64,000 nucleotides of DNA from an uncultured Bacteroidales bacterium (GTDB lineage Bacteria; Bacteroidota; Bacteroidia; Bacteroidales; UBA10428). Shown here piece after piece: positions 19,729-24,936 of this stretch. The position numbers and the translations under genes are program-made. How positions within the stretch are numbered: position 1 is the stretch's first letter; the number at the start of each line of letters is the position of its first letter. The stretch covers positions 4,035 through 68,034 of the forward strand of contig CAYWBC010000006.1 in NCBI GenBank assembly GCA_964456285.1, given 5' to 3'. The notes under the pieces are model-generated. The model worked only from the letters and a program-made list of their open reading frames with translations, made no database searches and was not told the origin of the DNA.

Positions 19729-20640
19729 TTAAAATAATCCCTCTACCGATAAATACCTTTCACCAGTATCGTAATTAAAGCCTAATACTATAGCAGCTTT
19801 TGGAATTTCAGGTAATTTTTTAGCAATAGCAGCGAGTGTTGCTCCTGAGGATATGCCAACAAACAAACCTTCCTCTTTTGCTGCTTTCTGAGCAAATTCA
19901 AAAGCTTCATCTTTCGATACCTGAATTGTTCCGTCAATGGCATCAATATGAAGATTTTCAGGAATAAATCCGGCGCCAATTCCTTGCAAGGGATGAGGCC
20001 CGGGTTTACCACCACCTATAACCGGCGAAGCCTCAGGCTCTACAGCAAATACTTTTAAATGGGAAAATTTTTCTTTTAATACTTCAGCTACTCCGGTGAT
20101 ATGACCTCCGGTTCCAACACCGGTGATCAGGTAATCTATTCCGTCAGGAAAATCACTAGCTATTTCTTGTGCAGTTGCAGTTTTATGAATGTCTATATTG
20201 GCCTGGTTATTAAATTGAGAGGGCATCCATGCTTTACTATCATTGCTGACCATCTCTTCTGCCTTTTCAATTGCACCTTTCATGCCTTTTTCACGTGGAG
20301 TAAGTTCAAATTCGGCGCCATAGGCAGCCATTATTTTTCTTCGTTCAACCGACATAGACTCAGGCATAACCAATATGATTTTGTATTTCTTCACTGCGGC
20401 AACCATGGCCAATCCTATGCCTGTATTTCCTGATGTAGGTTCAATGATTACGGAATCTTTCTTAAGAATACCTTTCTTCTCAGCATCTTCAATCATTGCC
20501 AGGGCAATTCTGTCCTTAATACTTCCACCGGGATTGTTTTTTTCTAGTTTGATCCATACCTCATAATTTTTATCAAACATATTATTGATCTTCAAATGCG
20601 GGGTATTTCCAACTGCTTCTAAAATTGTATTTATTTTCAT
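19729..20640 (-). CDS. cysK: Cysteine synthase A
   Basis: [12 protein letters not shown] lysine, [29 protein letters not shown]; start moved to the ATG at 20640. Confidence 0.96.
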
Positions 20641-20659: not shown

Positions 20660-21499
20660 TTAAATAATAAAATTGATGGGTTCATCCTTCATTTTGCCAT
20701 CCCTTACAACTGTTTTACTCTTGTTGTAGACAACACTGTATGGAGGAATGCTTTTTGTAAGCCATACATTACCTCCTACAATTGAATCATGTCCAATTAC
20801 AGTATCTCCTCCAAGGATTGTACTTCCTGAATAAATGATAACATTATCTTCAATGGTTGGATGACGTTTTGTTCCTCTCATTTTTTTCTCAACCATTATT
20901 GCACCAAGGGTTACTCCCTGGTAGATTTTTACGTTGTTTCCAACAGTTGCAGTTTCGCCAATTACTATTCCTGTACCATGGTCAATAAAAAAGTTTTTTC
21001 CAATAATTGCTCCGGGGTGAATTTCAATCCCGGTATTGCTATGTGCATATTCCGACATCATTCTTGGAAGGAATGGGATCTTTTGCTGGCAAAGTAAATG
21101 AGCCAAACGATAAACAGTAATTGCGTAAAAACCGGGATAATATAATATTATACTTTCCACAGATCTTGCTGCCGGATCAAAGTCAAGAAATTTCTTTGCA
21201 TCATCCATAAGATTGGAATAAATAGACGGAATTTTTGTAAAGAAATCAAGACTTATATCTCCTAAAGGTTTTTTGAGAGTAACTTCAAGAGGGCCTAATA
21301 AGTTTCTAAAATCAAGTTGAAGTTGAGCAAGATTTAATTCTATTTTCGGAAGAGTGCATTTTTTATCCACCTTAAATGGGAAAAGGAAATTTATAAGGTT
21401 CTCAGTGAAAGTTTGAGCCTTAAGCATTGAAGGGACATCCTTTCTGAATTCGTCATATTTTTTCAGTAAAAAAACAGGAAAATTTTCAAAATTATCCAT
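20660..21499 (-). CDS. cysE: Serine O-acetyltransferase (EpsC type)
   Basis: [42 protein letters not shown]. Confidence 0.94.
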
Positions 21500-21575
21500 T
21501 GTGTATTTTGTTTAAAAAAATGTATTATCCATAAAATAATTTGGAGTTATTGGAAACAACGACAATATGAGCTTG

Positions 21576-21671
21576 CTAGCAACAACACATACACACACCA
21601 CCATTCGAATAGCCTGTACGGCAGGGGAGTAAATTCCAGAAGAATAAGCTTAAAGTGGCGCTGTCTTTCAT
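21576..21671 (-). CDS. Putative Cys-rich leader peptide of cysE-cysK (MKDSATLSLFFWNLLPCRTGYSNGGVCMCCC)
   Basis: Read by hand: ATG at 21671 to TAG at 21576, 31 aa, last codons GTG TGT ATG TGT TGT TGC TAG; A-rich context before the ATG; same strand and 76 nt upstream of cysE. Confidence 0.8.
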   Translation of the reverse strand: MKDSATLSLFFWNLLPCRTGYSNGGVCMCCC

Positions 21672-21750
21672 ATTAGTTGATTCTATAAGTAAATTTCCGA
21701 ATTATTTATAATATAAAGCCGAAATCGCATGAAAATGTTTACGAGATCAG

Positions 21751-22566
21751 CTATTTTTTATTATTTCCCATCCGGACAAGTTTGTTATACGATGTAATCA
21801 GACCTTTGATAACTGATGAACTAAATCCCTGGTGTTCCATTTCATTTAAGCCGGAAATTGTAATGCCCTGAGGTGTTGTTACCTTATCAATCTCTGCTTC
21901 AGGATGTGAATTGTTCTCATGAAGCAATTGGGCAGCACCTTTAACGGTTTGAGAAACTATCAATTGTGATACCTCAGCACTAAACCCAATTTCAATTCCA
22001 CCTTGCGTAGCAGCCCTGACAAATCGCAGTGCAAAGGCAATACCACAAGCCCCCAAAACTGTGACTGCATCCAGTTGTTCTTCAGGAAGAATAATTGTTT
22101 TTCCAAGCTGCTCAAAAAGATTTACAGTCTTTTTTTCTTGTTCTTTGCTCGTATTATTAAAACAAATACAGGTCATTGATTCTCTAATTTCGATTGCTGT
22201 ATTTGGCATAATCCTTACTATAGGCTGTTTGCCTAAAGTGTCAGATATTTCAGAAAGGCTGACGCCTGTAACAGTAGATATAATAATTTGATCAGGTTTC
22301 AGATTGGGTTTGAGCTCTTCCAGAACAGATGTAAATTGTTGTGGTTTTACCGATATTATGATTACATTAGTATTATTTGTAACTTTTTTTATATCGCTAT
22401 CAATGGTATTGAAACCTGCTTCCTTAAGATATTCAACCCTCTGTTTTCGTTTTTCACAAATCACAAGGTTTTTGTTTGAAATATCCTTTAAGGAAAGAAT
22501 CCCTTTTGCAATAGATGATCCAAGATTCCCTCCACCAATGATTGCTATTTTATTAAAAGTTGCCAT
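21751..22566 (-). CDS. proC: Pyrroline-5-carboxylate reductase
   Basis: GGGNLG, VKPQ, RIMPNT, VTTPQGIT. Confidence 0.95.
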   Translation of the reverse strand: MATFNKIAIIGGGNLGSSIAKGILSLKDISNKNLVICEKRKQRVEYLKEAGFNTIDSDIKKVTNNTNVIIISVKPQQFTSVLEELKPNLKPDQIIISTVTGVSLSEISDTLGKQPIVRIMPNTAIEIRESMTCICFNNTSKEQEKKTVNLFEQLGKTIILPEEQLDAVTVLGACGIAFALRFVRAATQGGIEIGFSAEVSQLIVSQTVKGAAQLLHENNSHPEAEIDKVTTPQGITISGLNEMEHQGFSSSVIKGLITSYNKLVRMGNNKK

Positions 22567-22645: not shown

Positions 22646-23734
22646 TTAATTTTTTCTTTTTCTTAGAAGAGGCATGCTTACAGCCAAAAGAATAATAGCA
22701 ATTGTGATTATATAACTCCATTTATTGGTCTTTTTGGACTCGGCCCACATAGTATAATCTGTAAATACAAAAAACTCAGGTCCAAAATTCCAGTTTGGAA
22801 TTCCACCAATTATATTGCTTGCATTTGTATTTATCAAGGTTCCGGGCATAGAAACATTATGGGTATAGTCGTTATTTAAGTTGGCCAGGTAATCAGTATT
22901 TAACTTTTTATCAAACGATTTGAAAGCAAGTGTATCAGTAAATAATAAATCAGTGAAAGCTTTTGTATTATATATATTATCCAGGTGAGACAAAATTTGA
23001 TTAGCAGATGTATCAGATGATTCCCCTTCAGTTAAACAGAGACTCATTCTTGTTTGGGCTAACATCTCTGATTTTGCTTTTTCAAGATCTGTTTTCGAGA
23101 AAAAGTAGTTTGTTGAGTTCTTACTTTGCTTTACTAACTCAAGATAAAATTCTTCAAAAATATTTTCTGAAATAAAGTTGTCAACCTTTTTATCAAGATT
23201 TTTCTCAATTCTAGCACGCTCTATGGAATCTTTACCGGCATAAAAAACTGAATCTGTAACAGGATCCTCAAAAATAGATACTTCAATTTCTTCCTGGGTC
23301 ATGTAATCGCTTAGCGGAAAATGCTTAAAAGGAAACTGCTGGATATAGGTTTCCTCGTATCTGTATTTTGCGTAAAACCATCGGAATTTTTTAATAAGTT
23401 TCATTGTAAGATTAGGCTCTTCAGATGTAAAATCTTTTTTGTAGAATTCATTATTCATTGCTTTTACACTCTTGAATTTTTTCTGAACTGTTACAACAGC
23501 AAAGGTTTTATTTTCAGCCGTGTCGGTTTCCCACCTGACAGTTTTTTTCCAGGTAGTGTCAATGACAATGAAGAAAGGGTTACCATTATACTTATTGGAA
23601 TCCAGGCGGGCGGTCATGGTACGTAAGCAAGATCCATCGGCGAATACCCTTGTTGTGATGGTATAGTCTATTCCACAAGCAGTTAGTAGCAATATTAAGC
23701 TTACTGTGAATGCCCAATGACTAATTTTTTTCAT
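22646..23734 (-). CDS. Hypothetical lipoprotein with C-terminal transmembrane helix
   Basis: Lipobox LLTAC at aa 16-20; C-terminal hydrophobic helix followed by basic RKRKN. Confidence 0.65.
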   Translation of the reverse strand: MKKISHWAFTVSLILLLTACGIDYTITTRVFADGSCLRTMTARLDSNKYNGNPFFIVIDTTWKKTVRWETDTAENKTFAVVTVQKKFKSVKAMNNEFYKKDFTSEEPNLTMKLIKKFRWFYAKYRYEETYIQQFPFKHFPLSDYMTQEEIEVSIFEDPVTDSVFYAGKDSIERARIEKNLDKKVDNFISENIFEEFYLELVKQSKNSTNYFFSKTDLEKAKSEMLAQTRMSLCLTEGESSDTSANQILSHLDNIYNTKAFTDLLFTDTLAFKSFDKKLNTDYLANLNNDYTHNVSMPGTLINTNASNIIGGIPNWNFGPEFFVFTDYTMWAESKKTNKWSYIITIAIILLAVSMPLLRKRKN

Positions 23735-23744
23735 AACGAATTAT

Positions 23745-24371
23745 TTATAGTTTGTGTGTAGGATATTTACATTCTTTAAGTGTTCTTTGAAGTTCTTTAT
23801 ATACTTCCGGATGATTGATTCGGAGATAATTTAATATAGTAGATTTTTCTTCCTGAATAGATCTATAGCTATCGATAAGCTCCAATACCTCCTCCTCAGT
23901 GATTTCGAGTTTTTCTAATAGTTTTGGATTGTCTAAGAATGAAACAATATCTATTTCATTTGCCCTTATATCCTTGGTGTCAGGATAGTCTTGTAATTCA
24001 ATTCTTACTTTGAGATCTTTCAGGTTTCTTTTTATCTGCATTTGCTGAATAAGAAACAGACCGATCAGAAATACCGCTGCTGCATTAATAATTATTCGAA
24101 GAGTTCTGTAGCTAATTATTTGCGGATGGCGTATTTTCTGGAAAGCATTTATTTCTTTAAAAATAGAATTTATAGTGTTTTCCTTTTTTTCATCCTTAGG
24201 TATTGTAGTTCTTAGTTTTCTGGTAAGCTTGAATAATTGCTTATTTCTTTCAAGTTCTACAGTACATTTTTCACAGTTTTTCAAATGACTTTCCAAAAGA
24301 ACTCTTTCTTCCGGACTAATTTCCTCATAAAGAAATTGGATTAATAAATCCTGGTAGTCTTTGCATTCCAT
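23745..24371 (-). CDS. Zinc-binding anti-sigma factor (ZAS/zf-HC2) with a TM helix
   Basis: MECKDYQ..HLKNCEKC (HxxxCxxC), central TM, directly downstream of an ECF sigma; start moved to 24371. Confidence 0.85.
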   Translation of the reverse strand: MECKDYQDLLIQFLYEEISPEERVLLESHLKNCEKCTVELERNKQLFKLTRKLRTTIPKDEKKENTINSIFKEINAFQKIRHPQIISYRTLRIIINAAAVFLIGLFLIQQMQIKRNLKDLKVRIELQDYPDTKDIRANEIDIVSFLDNPKLLEKLEITEEEVLELIDSYRSIQEEKSTILNYLRINHPEVYKELQRTLKECKYPTHKL

Positions 24372-24381
24372 AATACAAGGT

Positions 24382-24936
24382 TTAATATTCAACTTTATAA
24401 ATTGTAACCAGTTTTTCCCGGATAGCCTTTCGGGCATGCCACAGATTACTTTTTACTCTTGATGCAGATAGTTTTATTATTTTGGCGATTTCTTCCATCT
24501 CAAGGCCCTCAAGATCGCGCAATACAAAAATGGCGCGTTGTTTGGGGCTTAGTTCATTTGCGATACAGGCAATTATTGATGCCAGGTCTTTTTTTGCAAG
24601 TTGGTCTTCTTCATTCGAGAGGTTTACCTTCCTGAGTGCTTCTTCACAATATATATCTGAATGTATTTTTTGTTTTCTCAAACTATCGATACAGAGATTA
24701 GTAACAATAGTATACAGCCAGGTAGTGAATTTTATTTTTTCGTTATAGGAAGAAATATTTTTCCAAACTCTGATAAAAGTTTCCTGTACAATGTCTTTGG
24801 CATCCTCTTCCTGTGCTAATATTCTGAAAGCTACCCTATAGATATAATCATAATTTTCTTCGCATAAAATTGCAAAGGCATTTTCATCACCAGCTTTACA
24901 TTTCCTAAGAATAGAGGATTGATTTCTGGATGCCAT
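24382..24936 (-). CDS. ECF (sigma-70 group 4) RNA polymerase sigma factor
   Basis: Region 2 DIVQETFIRVW..FTTWLY; region 4 LSPKQRAIFVLR..EIA..VKSNL. Confidence 0.93.
   Translation of the reverse strand: MASRNQSSILRKCKAGDENAFAILCEENYDYIYRVAFRILAQEEDAKDIVQETFIRVWKNISSYNEKIKFTTWLYTIVTNLCIDSLRKQKIHSDIYCEEALRKVNLSNEEDQLAKKDLASIIACIANELSPKQRAIFVLRDLEGLEMEEIAKIIKLSASRVKSNLWHARKAIREKLVTIYKVEY

Follow-up and report, generated by a model that had tools for sequence, protein, structure and literature searches.

Introduction

Leaders carrying Cys codons have been described in mycobacteria as leaderless polycysteine small open reading frames (sORFs) of the Ms5788A type (Canestrari et al., bioRxiv 10.1101/834739), which confirms the remark in a first-pass annotation of the DNA studied here that short ORFs of Cys codons are known in that group. 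For Actinobacteria, Seliverstov et al. (2005, PMC1262725) predicted Cys-codon leaders upstream of cys and cbs genes, noted that terminators were missing and proposed a Rho mechanism like that of tna. In Rhodobacterales, the uORFC-8-2 motif lies upstream of cysS (Brewer et al. 2021, PMC8632094). A literature search for a description of a Cys-codon leader in Bacteroidota returned none, in line with the first-pass annotation, which knew of no characterised example in this phylum.

Little is known about how Bacteroidota regulate the synthesis of amino acids, and neither proteobacterial CysB nor the firmicute T-box and CymR systems are obviously applicable to it. Here we analyse a short, Cys-ending ORF upstream of cysE and cysK in an uncultured Bacteroidales bacterium and compare it with its counterparts in relatives. 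The conserved leader is most likely a variant of the known Cys-codon leaders, built on a peptide tail and one fixed Cys codon and not on a run of codons plus a terminator.

Results

The leader ORF at the cysE-cysK locus

The stretch of DNA that was analysed, 64,000 nt in full and referred to below as the window, carries the following genes at the locus:

21576..21671, minus strand: leader ORF, 31 codons plus TAG, encoding MKDSATLSLFFWNLLPCRTGYSNGGVCMCCC, with its ATG start at 21671
20660..21499, minus strand: cysE, serine O-acetyltransferase, 279 aa, EpsC-type, above the NF041874 cut-off, C-terminus ...NFII
19729..20640, minus strand: cysK, cysteine synthase A (TIGR01139, 392 bits), directly after cysE

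Upstream, proC (identified by its TIGR00112 match) ends at 21751 and cysE starts at 21499, leaving an intergenic gap of 251 nt in which the leader stop lies 76 nt before the cysE start. The 31-codon minus-strand ORF, the gap and the distance to cysE, with cysK behind it, were all exactly as the first-pass annotation had given them. For cysK, an internal Met is the probable start, yielding a protein of 303 aa that matches the orthologues (302 or 303 aa).

Cys makes up 5 of the 31 leader residues (16%), compared to 0.93% in the long ORFs of the window. The last five codons comprise four Cys and one Met, and an ATG nested inside the ORF would give the mini-ORF MCCC. CysK has no Cys in its 303 aa and CysE has only 2, so that both could be made when the leader cannot be. 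The six-frame translation of the window holds 14 other reading frames that end in CC or CCC before the stop; the window by itself can thus not separate the leader ORF from chance, and it is the comparison with relatives that decides.

Bacteroidota promoters carry the elements -33 TTTG and -7 TAnnTTTG. A block upstream of the leader appears to resemble them, and a sigma-70 scan does not cover promoters of this kind:

21690..21717, minus strand: promoter-like block, CTTTAT...AAATAATTCGGAAATTTA, ending 18 nt before the leader ATG and kept in the alignment of relatives

With this block about 18 nt from the ATG, the 5' UTR would be short, and the leader ORF probably sits at the 5' end of the cysE-cysK transcript. 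Co-transcription of the leader with cysE is assumed, since an AT-rich near-match to the promoter consensus is possible inside the spacer between them. To our knowledge, ribosomes of Bacteroidota do not use Shine-Dalgarno pairing.

Occurrence of the leader in relatives

A set of orthologous loci was found through CysE alone. A syntenic ORF between proC and cysE was present in all nine orthologous loci with a gap of at least 239 nt. It was absent from all five with a short proC-cysE gap (15-81 nt), and also from more distant CysE relatives. The expectation that conserved Cys-rich ORFs would be found upstream of cysE in relatives was thus borne out for the ORF itself at every long-gap locus, but most of the ORFs there are not poly-Cys and the short-gap and distant loci have none. 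The syntenic copies are:

Loci L001-L003, L082, L084, L087, L089, L092, L098, L108-L111 and L115-L117: leader ORFs of 27-36 codons

The gene order pgk-proC-leader-cysE-cysK is kept. The sample of the family amounts to 13 distinct copies; it is phylogenetically narrow, and all copies come from metagenomes or metagenome-assembled genomes. At three loci representing two leaderless relatives (L114, L118 and L119), a gene for an Rrf2-family regulator lies between cysE and cysK, which fits the replacement of one regulator by another.

A pattern scan of metagenome DNA returned 27 loci. Nine of these lie upstream of cysE; twelve correspond to a plant NPR1-like exon read in another frame and six to GC-rich long ORFs, and both of these groups were taken as chance. 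A broad peptide pattern run across 0.8 Mb of locus sequence found no additional members, and when 1.8 billion representatives were searched by phmmer with the leader peptide, the only matches were four multi-stretch ones in long unrelated proteins. The more distant CysE loci L004-L012 lack a leader; a frame there that ends in LNLC and stop turned out to be a by-product of a promoter-like element situated about 35 nt upstream of cysE. Three leader peptides had no match in Pfam or NCBIfam at E<=10. Likewise, the window's leader had no Rfam match at E<=10, nor did nine related loci at gathering score; for Bacteroid-trp (RF01692), the sole match in the region falls inside proC at chance level (25 bits, where the gathering score is 49; E=9).

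The leader is conserved as a coding sequence

Across 14 copies, the leader frame contains no in-frame stop, compared to 18 and 12 stops in the other two frames. The chance of every copy being open is about 2e-7 when 12 distinct copies are taken as independent. Exactly 21 codons precede SNGG in 8 of the first 10 distinct copies, the others differing by whole codons, and all indels in the leader are multiples of three (-6 and +18 nt). This regularity is seen among copies whose CysE proteins are only 72-87% identical and whose flanks and N-terminal codons have diverged almost beyond alignment; the N-terminal two thirds of the peptide are fixed in length and not conserved in sequence.

Conservation is concentrated at the end of the ORF:

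21585..21614, minus strand: conserved coding block, codons 20-29, G-Y-S-N-G-G-V-C-M-C
21585..21587, minus strand: invariant Cys codon 29, TGT, at NGG + 4 in every copy; candidate sensing codon
21579..21584, minus strand: two extra Cys codons, TGT TGC, both found only in the window and in an identical metagenome copy (L090)

The family consensus of the block is G-[FY]-[SG]-N-G-G-[VIM]-[CYA]-[MC]-C, followed by 0-2 more Cys codons and the stop. In the nine copies found via CysE alone, the entropy of the block by codon position is 4.25, 3.62 and 10.17 bits (permutation P=0.002), and within the N-G-G-V codons position 3 has 7 extra states, whereas positions 1 and 2 have 1 and 0. The open frame, the kept length and this variation show that selection for coding acts on the leader ORF, on its length and on its final ten codons.

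Codon 29 is TGT in 13 of 13 distinct copies. The distance from NGG to the stop is not fixed, as between none and two Cys codons follow codon 29, and the C-terminal residue of the peptide is Cys in all copies. The stop is UGA in 10 of the 13 distinct copies. Nine of the 13 end in C-M-C or Y-M-C, and two or more consecutive Cys codons occur only in the window, in L001/L084 and in L111; these three relatives each have one or two extra Cys codons of their own. At the position of the extra Cys codons of the window, relatives have TGA, TAA or TGT-TAG, and the C-C-C end of the window seems to have arisen by extension, with stop codons changed to Cys (TGA to TGT). The first-pass annotation had taken the poly-Cys run for the key feature; most relatives end in C-M-C or Y-M-C, and what is conserved is the C-terminal peptide with a single invariant Cys codon. 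The MCCC mini-ORF that it had pointed out is present in the window but is not conserved, L111 having no ATG at that place.

An RNA helix joins the start of the ORF to the conserved block

Folding of the aligned copies with RNAalifold placed a helix, P1, inside the ORF:

21652..21662, minus strand: 5' strand of P1, ORF nt 10-20, AGCGCCACTTT
21594..21604, minus strand: 3' strand of P1, ORF nt 68-78, ATGGTGGTGTG, overlapping the N-G-G-V codons

Paired cells amount to 83.6% for P1, compared to 36-56% when the partner is slid, and the summed duplex energy is -221 kcal/mol against -159 +/- 10 kcal/mol for shuffles (z of about -6). Double changes were seen at pairs 10:78 (AU/UA) and 16:72 (AU/GC), together with 24 wobble-compatible single changes. 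The peptide is kept in L115, where the 5' segment has its pairing partner elsewhere in the 3' block. Taken as a whole, the leader of the window folds no better than its shuffles (z = +1.15). A second hairpin 5' of the motif, P2, appears in most single-sequence folds but in differing registers (sums 105, 106 and 110), and we do not claim it. A terminator formed by P1 and the U/G-rich tract that follows was ruled out by logic, because RNA polymerase passes this point before any ribosome reaches the Cys codon. Both the conserved GFSNGGVxMC under coding selection and the helix that joins the 5' part of the ORF to it go beyond the first-pass annotation.

The spacer and the search for an output

Between the leader and cysE lies the following element:

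21500..21575, minus strand: spacer from leader stop to cysE, 76 nt, A/T-rich, with 13 C and 6 G and little structure

Spacers of the family measure 68-101 nt and have a C/G ratio of 2.1, compared to about 1.07 in the other upstream regions of the window. The skew is strongest directly behind the leader stop, where the first 30 nt hold 95 C against 36 G in 12 copies; the C-over-G skew of the window's own spacer is inside the range of the other upstream regions of the window.

No intrinsic terminator lies between the leader and cysE in the window, and among 14 copies a terminator-like hairpin occurs in the spacer of only one (L002), a further match in L115 being inside the ORF. Neither the motif nor the P1 5' strand gave duplex energies with the spacer or cysE start that were better than those of shuffles (z = +0.65 and -1.4), and pairing of the cysE start with the spacer was not conserved (z = -0.3 against shuffles). 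In a sub-clade (L087, L089, L092 and L110), a UUUUUCCAU segment is complementary to the cysE start of the same locus, a feature that is not general. When a stalled ribosome was simulated, the mean opening cost of the cysE start was unchanged (5.5 vs 5.4 kcal/mol), and translational unmasking of cysE by such a ribosome was rejected for want of a consistent effect. A classical attenuator was likewise rejected, for want of a terminator and because shuffles fold as well as the window's leader does. The trp/his/leu-type design proposed in the first-pass annotation does not survive the finding of a terminator-like hairpin in only 1 of 14 spacers and the lack of a conserved alternative pairing.

Discussion

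A leader that may report the supply of charged tRNA-Cys

On balance, we lean towards reading the ORF as a translated, cis-acting leader of the cysE-cysK mRNA, present in one uncultured Bacteroidales clade, that reports the supply of charged tRNA-Cys. Sensing probably takes place at the fixed Cys codon with the help of the nascent peptide. When Cys-tRNA is scarce, the ribosome would wait with this codon in its A site, at which point the upper exit tunnel would be filled by the conserved G-F/Y-S-N-G-G-V-x-M. These tunnel residues probably slow the incorporation of Cys, so that a single codon would suffice as sensor; the three consecutive terminal Cys codons of the window could make it a more sensitive copy. 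With the motif transcribed, P1 would close over the stretch that directly follows the leader start, so that translation of the leader would fall mainly to the first, co-transcriptional ribosome. The weakest step is the output. As neither a terminator nor a conserved switch helix is present, we favour a route similar to that of tna, in which a ribosome stalled at the end of the ORF might deny Rho access to the first part of the spacer, which is rich in C and poor in G; alternatively, the stalled ribosome might shield the mRNA from decay. Either way, expression of cysE-cysK would rise when cysteine is short. Of the earlier proposal that the ORF is a Cys-tRNA-sensing switch, the core stands, as a conserved, always Cys-ending ORF is best explained by ribosome-mediated cysteine sensing, while the poly-Cys and attenuator design does not. 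Against this reading counts the fact that a single sensing codon is unusual among starvation-sensing leaders.

The same conserved tail could belong to an arrest peptide that senses a ligand, in which nascent ...GFSNGGVxMC and the ribosome bind a small ligand, for instance free cysteine, O-acetylserine or sulfide, and elongation or termination stalls, in the way that TnaC responds to tryptophan and SpeFL to ornithine. About ten C-terminal residues kept as amino acids with synonymous variation, an N-terminus that varies at fixed length, the lack of both an RNA switch and a terminator, and the UGA stop of 10 of the 13 distinct copies all suit such a peptide, and the sensing of a free amino acid by a leader peptide has a precedent in TnaC (PMC8429421). 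We consider it unlikely, since the stop lies at differing distances from NGG (1-3 Cys codons), an argument against a stall at termination, and since a product that induces its own biosynthetic operon follows the wrong logic, such that a precursor ligand or a repressing stall would be needed. The peptide might instead act in trans, as a co-expressed, non-regulatory micropeptide whose Cys-ending tail has a function of its own, for example in binding CysK or CysE, as a sulfur or metal carrier or as a modified peptide. The tail is under coding selection, which tRNA-Cys sensing explains no better, the Cys is always C-terminal, and CysK is controlled by C-terminal tails that insert into its active site. 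However, known CysK-binding tails end in Ile and not in Cys, and CysE already bears the usual Ile-ending tail (...NFII). No genes for a modifying enzyme or transporter lie nearby, the N-terminal two thirds of the peptide are not conserved and find no Pfam or NCBIfam match, and P1 over the start region together with the fixed place before cysE better suit a leader; a micropeptide therefore seems rather improbable to us.

If the element were a structured RNA, for example a riboswitch, a site for protein binding or a P1-based 5' stabiliser, the reading frame would be incidental. The conservation of P1, with wobble-compatible and some compensatory changes, and the small hairpins just 5' of the motif in most copies are in keeping with this. 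What makes it very improbable is the three-base periodicity of variation in the motif, the 0 stops in the leader frame against 18 and 12 in the others, a start codon at fixed codon distance and indels in multiples of three. L115 moreover re-pairs its 5' segment elsewhere yet keeps the peptide, there is no Rfam match, and the leader of the window stands at z = +1.15 against shuffles. As CC and CCC ends before a stop are common in the six-frame translation of the AT-rich window, one could also imagine a functionless chance frame in a T/G-rich stretch, kept only through close kinship. This we can hardly credit, given that the flanks have diverged and the CysE proteins are 72-87% identical, yet the frame, its length and its last ten codons are kept.

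A more specific claim is offered tentatively and with some doubt: that the tail G-[FY]-S-N-G-G-[VIM]-x-M is a new arrest or sensitiser motif of the tunnel, through which a single Cys codon or a bound sulfur metabolite switches cysE-cysK. Should the tail indeed arrest or sensitise, it would be the first cysteine sensor based on a nascent peptide and, in Bacteroidota, the first arrest peptide linked to a metabolite; working inside the ribosome, it would represent a new arrest or sensitiser motif and one codon that serves as a terminator-free amino-acid sensor. A leader before cysE-cysK offers a concrete, testable regulator of sulfur assimilation in anaerobic Bacteroidales. It also illustrates that ORFs of 27-36 codons, at or below common length limits of gene calling, can be found and then validated by synteny and codon-position analysis.

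Comparison with known systems

With the mycobacterial and Actinobacteria leaders, the ORF shares its place as a short ORF first in the transcript of cysteine genes, Cys codons beside the stop, the lack of an intrinsic terminator and a proposed sensor that is Cys-tRNA supply read by the ribosome. It differs from them in phylum, in unrelated sequence and in the conservation, as amino acids, of the peptide before the Cys codon. The mycobacterial class is defined by at least two consecutive Cys codons, whereas here one is invariant and the end is mostly C-M-C or Y-M-C. The output differs as well: there, a stalled ribosome opens a duplex that hides the downstream ribosome-binding site, and here no such duplex is conserved. 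The mycobacterial mRNAs are leaderless, whereas this one probably has a short 5' UTR. The uORFC-8-2 motif has in common with our leader a predicted uORF, conserved Cys codons and a link to cysteine and tRNA-Cys supply; it belongs to another phylum and precedes another gene, and its two tandem Cys codons lie mid-ORF in a stem, with an intrinsic terminator after it.

The trp/his/leu/thr attenuators, Bacteroid-trp among them, likewise place a leader ORF with cognate codons upstream of biosynthetic genes and have an RNA helix over the ORF, P1 being comparable to the 1:2 pause hairpin. In contrast to them, the leader described here has no terminator/antiterminator pair and mostly no codon run, and its peptide sequence is conserved.

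TnaC, the leader of tna in E. coli, senses a free amino acid, stalls at termination and induces a catabolic operon. In our case the genes serve biosynthesis, what is fixed is a sense (Cys) codon and not the stop, and dependence on Rho is conjecture, whereas the nascent-peptide sensors TnaC and SpeFL are coupled to termination by Rho. TnaC and SpeFL otherwise resemble our leader in a variable N-terminal part, the absence of a terminator hairpin, a C-rich region that begins at the stop codon and a handful of conserved residues set at a constant distance from the stall site, which in our case is a presumed one. As in the nascent-peptide sensors TnaC, SpeFL and SecM, about ten tunnel-proximal residues are conserved while their nucleotides vary synonymously.

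A small ORF between proC and cysE

Re-reading of the proC-cysE gap bore out every detail of the ORF described in the first-pass annotation: its coordinates, its sequence, the 251-nt gap and the 76 nt that separate its stop from cysE. A zinc-type dehydrogenase gene also lies downstream of cysE, following cysK. The features concerned are as follows (asterisk, stop codon).

21671..21576, minus strand: leader ORF, peptide MKDSATLSLFFWNLLPCRTGYSNGGVCMCCC*
22566..21751: proC, upstream neighbour of the leader
21499..20660: cysE, downstream neighbour of the leader
20640 (probable start): cysK, 303 aa, next after cysE

Six-frame translation of the window (35.5% G+C) gave CC* or CCC* frame ends at 14 other places, so the window by itself is no proof that the leader ORF matters. 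Upstream of the leader there is a conserved promoter-like block that ends approximately 18 nt before the ATG. About 60 nt 5' of this block, immediately past the proC stop, lies a conserved box, GTAAACATTTT (window 21732-21742, minus strand), which occurs at the same spot in most relatives, with the form TTGAACAATTT in several, and may either bind a regulator or contribute to the promoter as an upstream element. Two genes lie upstream of proC at window 22646-24437 (minus strand): the product of one, 230 aa long, carries a zf-HC2 anti-sigma-type zinc finger, and that of the other, 362 aa long, matches nothing in Pfam.

Distribution of the leader in related loci

CysE relatives were gathered independently of the leader, by a scan of species-representative genomes and a protein search that was then extended by contigs encoding selected CysE homologues. 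A small ORF was present at the same position in all nine loci with a CysE 72-87% identical to that of the window and a proC-cysE gap of at least 239 nt (the window and the related loci L001, L002/L109, L003, L108, L110, L111, L115 and L116/L117). No leader ORF was found in five of five orthologous loci with a gap of 15-81 nt (L112, L113, L114, L118/L119 and the P0113 locus; CysE identity 70-72%), nor in L004-L012 (CysE identity 50-59%), which carry a promoter-like element near cysE. Relatives share the arrangement pgk-proC-[leader]-cysE-cysK, and the leader lies 68-101 nt ahead of cysE.

A degenerate nucleotide pattern modelled on the C-terminal end of the peptide retrieved 27 loci from a metagenome collection. 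Nine are additional leader copies, each upstream of a cysE with an MDNFENFP-type start; the other 18, which fall in GC-rich long ORFs or in a plant NPR1-like exon read in a different frame, were rejected as chance matches. The NPR1/BTB-type lookalikes, which have a splice-donor-like end (L081, L083, L085, L088, L093, L095-L097, L099, L102, L106 and L107), come from soil or rhizosphere metagenomes and match the motif in a different frame; pattern matches of this kind therefore need a context check. The leader copies, a narrow family of 13 distinct sequences, all come from uncultured Bacteroidales, sampled as metagenomes or MAGs. A group II intron domain match (Rfam RF00029, 49 bits, E=1e-6) at L092 142-213 is about 12 kb away from the leader and unconnected with it.

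In two relatives (three loci), an Rrf2-family regulator gene is located between cysE and cysK (L114 3576-4025; L118 2643-3092; L119 2644-3093). These loci are leaderless, with a proC-cysE gap of 19-81 nt, and no leader-bearing locus has an Rrf2 gene at this position. It looks as if one regulatory device, Rrf2 regulator or leader, substitutes for the other.

The C-terminal peptide and a single cysteine codon are conserved

Leader peptides in the family are 27-36 residues long. Their first two thirds are hardly alignable; the final ten codons read G-[FY]-[SG]-N-G-G-[VIM]-[CYA]-[MC]-C, followed by 0-2 further Cys codons and the stop. Of the ten distinct copies collected first, eight have exactly 21 codons ahead of S-N-G-G; the others differ by -2 or +6 codons, in frame throughout. 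Between the ATG and the motif, 14 copies contain no stop in frame 0, 18 in frame +1 and 12 in frame +2, and the chance of every copy being open is about 2e-7 when 12 copies are treated as independent. Kept in frame at the same place in related loci, the ORF is a real feature. For nine copies found without use of the motif, entropy at codon positions 1/2/3 was 4.25/3.62/10.17 bits, with third positions the most variable (permutation P=0.002), and the N-G-G-V codons showed 7 extra states at position 3 versus a single one at position 1 and none at position 2. This concentration of variation at third positions shows that the leader motif is selected as an amino-acid sequence. In another frame, a 30-codon ORF (window 21512-21604, minus strand) starts at an ATG within the motif's conserved AATGG and extends to within 12 nt of cysE; this frame lacks conservation, having an early stop in L001 and no ATG in L116.

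Cys codons at the end of the leader (asterisk, stop codon)
CMCCC*: window only, with the identical metagenome copy L090
CMCC*: L001 and L084
ACCC*: L111
CMC* or YMC*: every other copy

The sole invariant Cys codon is the fourth after N-G-G and is TGT in every copy. The poly-Cys run initially singled out is thus not the conserved feature, and the nested MCCC* mini-ORF noted with it is not general, there being no ATG at that point in L111. The variable count of trailing Cys codons is what single TGA-to-TGT changes would give.

A helix joins the two ends of the leader

RNAalifold returned one consensus helix, P1, which pairs ORF nt 10-20 with nt 68-78, the N-G-G-V codons. With ten copies aligned without gaps, 83.6% of P1 cells were paired, compared to 36-56% when the 3' partner was slid by 1-3 columns. 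Two-sided changes occur at 10:78 (A-U/U-A) and 16:72 (A-U/G-C), and 24 single changes retain pairing via G-U. Summed over 14 copies, duplex energy was -221 kcal/mol, compared to -159 +/- 10 for a shuffled 5' segment. Individually, P1 is weak in some copies (the window, p=0.26; L087; L116), is displaced by one codon in L110, and has its 5' segment paired to another portion of the 3' block in L115; the helix is therefore less constant than the peptide. Constraint on the peptide appears to hold the 3' strand in place, with the freely evolving 5' codons adapting to that strand. The leader ORF of L115 exceeds that of most copies by six codons, and its lengthened part holds a perfect 10-bp hairpin (GCAAACAATT-TACG-AATTGTTTGC, 1053-1078); the frame is still open.

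Searches for a terminator, switch pairing or known family

Rfam gave no leader match, whether in the window at E<=10 or, with the gathering score as threshold, in nine related loci, and no Pfam or NCBIfam model matched the leader peptides. No intrinsic terminator was found in the window, and a terminator-like hairpin lies between leader ORF and cysE in one of 14 copies. The fold of the whole window leader was no better than shuffles (z = +1.15). Neither the motif/Cys region (z = +0.65) nor the P1 5' strand (z = -1.4) paired above shuffles with the spacer, from leader stop to cysE, plus the cysE start, and the cysE start did not do so with the spacer (z = -0.3). With no terminator in the window and no pairing better than shuffles, the trp-type attenuator design suggested at first is not present. 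A simulated ribosome footprint on the Cys codon left the opening cost of the cysE start unaltered (mean 5.5 vs 5.4 kcal/mol), and the mycobacterial design, in which a stall opens a duplex that hides the ribosome-binding site, was rejected on this result and for want of supporting pairing.

In the sub-clade of L087, L089, L092 and L110, a UUUUUCCAU-like segment 12-25 nt past the leader stop can pair with the cysE start AUGGAAAAA by complementarity, which brings the cost of opening that start up into the range of 7-10 kcal/mol. The segment may act as a translational element specific to this sub-clade. The window spacer also holds a second mini-ORF (21512-21532, minus strand; ATGGATAATACATTTTTTTAA, MDNTFF*) that duplicates the first three cysE codons (MDN). 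A similar one in L001 and L084, MDITSLLKYYI*, has its stop overlapping the cysE ATG, and the type is missing in other sub-clades, as in the L087 spacer, which has no ATG.

Proposed mechanism

With its constrained C-terminal peptide, single fixed Cys codon and helix joining both ends, the leader has the sequence hallmarks of a translated element. Because the invariant Cys codon, unlike the stop, keeps a constant spacing from N-G-G, Cys decoding rather than termination would be the critical event. While this codon is in the A site, nascent-chain positions -1 to -9, the stretch used by arrest peptides, would be filled by the conserved residues. We propose that the peptide slows Cys incorporation, such that a single codon could report Cys-tRNA supply; additional Cys codons, as in the window, would confer greater sensitivity. 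P1 starts 10 nt after the ATG, and initiation in Bacteroidota takes place on mRNA that is unstructured and does without Shine-Dalgarno pairing. After transcription of the motif, P1 would close the leader start, leaving only the first, co-transcriptional ribosome to read the leader.

Spacers in the family are rich in C and poor in G (C/G 2.1 vs about 1.07 for other upstream regions of the window), with the C excess strongest in the first 30 nt past the stop (95 C vs 36 G in 12 copies); the window spacer (13 C, 6 G) is within the range of its neighbouring upstream regions. By analogy with the tna operon, a ribosome stalled at the ORF end might mask a Rho-loading region, and assigning this role to the C-rich spacers is the weakest step of the proposal. 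Alternatively, the stalled ribosome may protect the mRNA. Cys is absent from the 303 residues of CysK and occurs twice among the 279 of CysE (background 0.93%), so both enzymes could be made when the leader cannot.

An arrest peptide sensing a ligand (free cysteine, O-acetylserine or sulfide) is compatible with these data and agrees with the peptide conservation, although its logic would be awkward for a biosynthetic operon. It is also possible that the ORF encodes a trans-acting micropeptide, as its tail is selected at the protein level; however, the usual Ile-ending CysK-binding tail is already on CysE, partner genes are absent from the neighbourhood, and the ORF position and helix are better suited to a leader. 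An RNA-only element is contradicted by the three-base periodicity, open frame and in-frame indels, and a chance frame by conservation that persists across diverged copies.

Relation to known cysteine-codon leaders

Cys-codon leaders have been demonstrated experimentally in mycobacteria, where a stalled ribosome opens a duplex hiding the next gene's ribosome-binding site (bioRxiv 10.1101/834739), and predicted in other Actinobacteria (PMC1262725) and, with a terminator, upstream of cysS in Rhodobacterales (PMC8632094). A Rho-based, tna-like mode had already been proposed for terminator-less mycobacterial Cys leaders (PMC1262725). Our literature search found no Cys-codon leader described in Bacteroidota; Bacteroides and Flavobacterium transcriptome papers note leader-like small ORFs just in general terms. 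We propose that the Bacteroidales leader works like the known class. Unlike mycobacterial leaders, it has no consecutive-Cys requirement and no detected duplex hiding the ribosome-binding site, and unlike trp-type attenuators and the Rhodobacterales cysS leader, it generally lacks a terminator (hairpin in 1/14 copies). The leader thus lacks the defining features of each named family, and what is new relative to known Cys-codon leaders is the conserved nascent-peptide motif.
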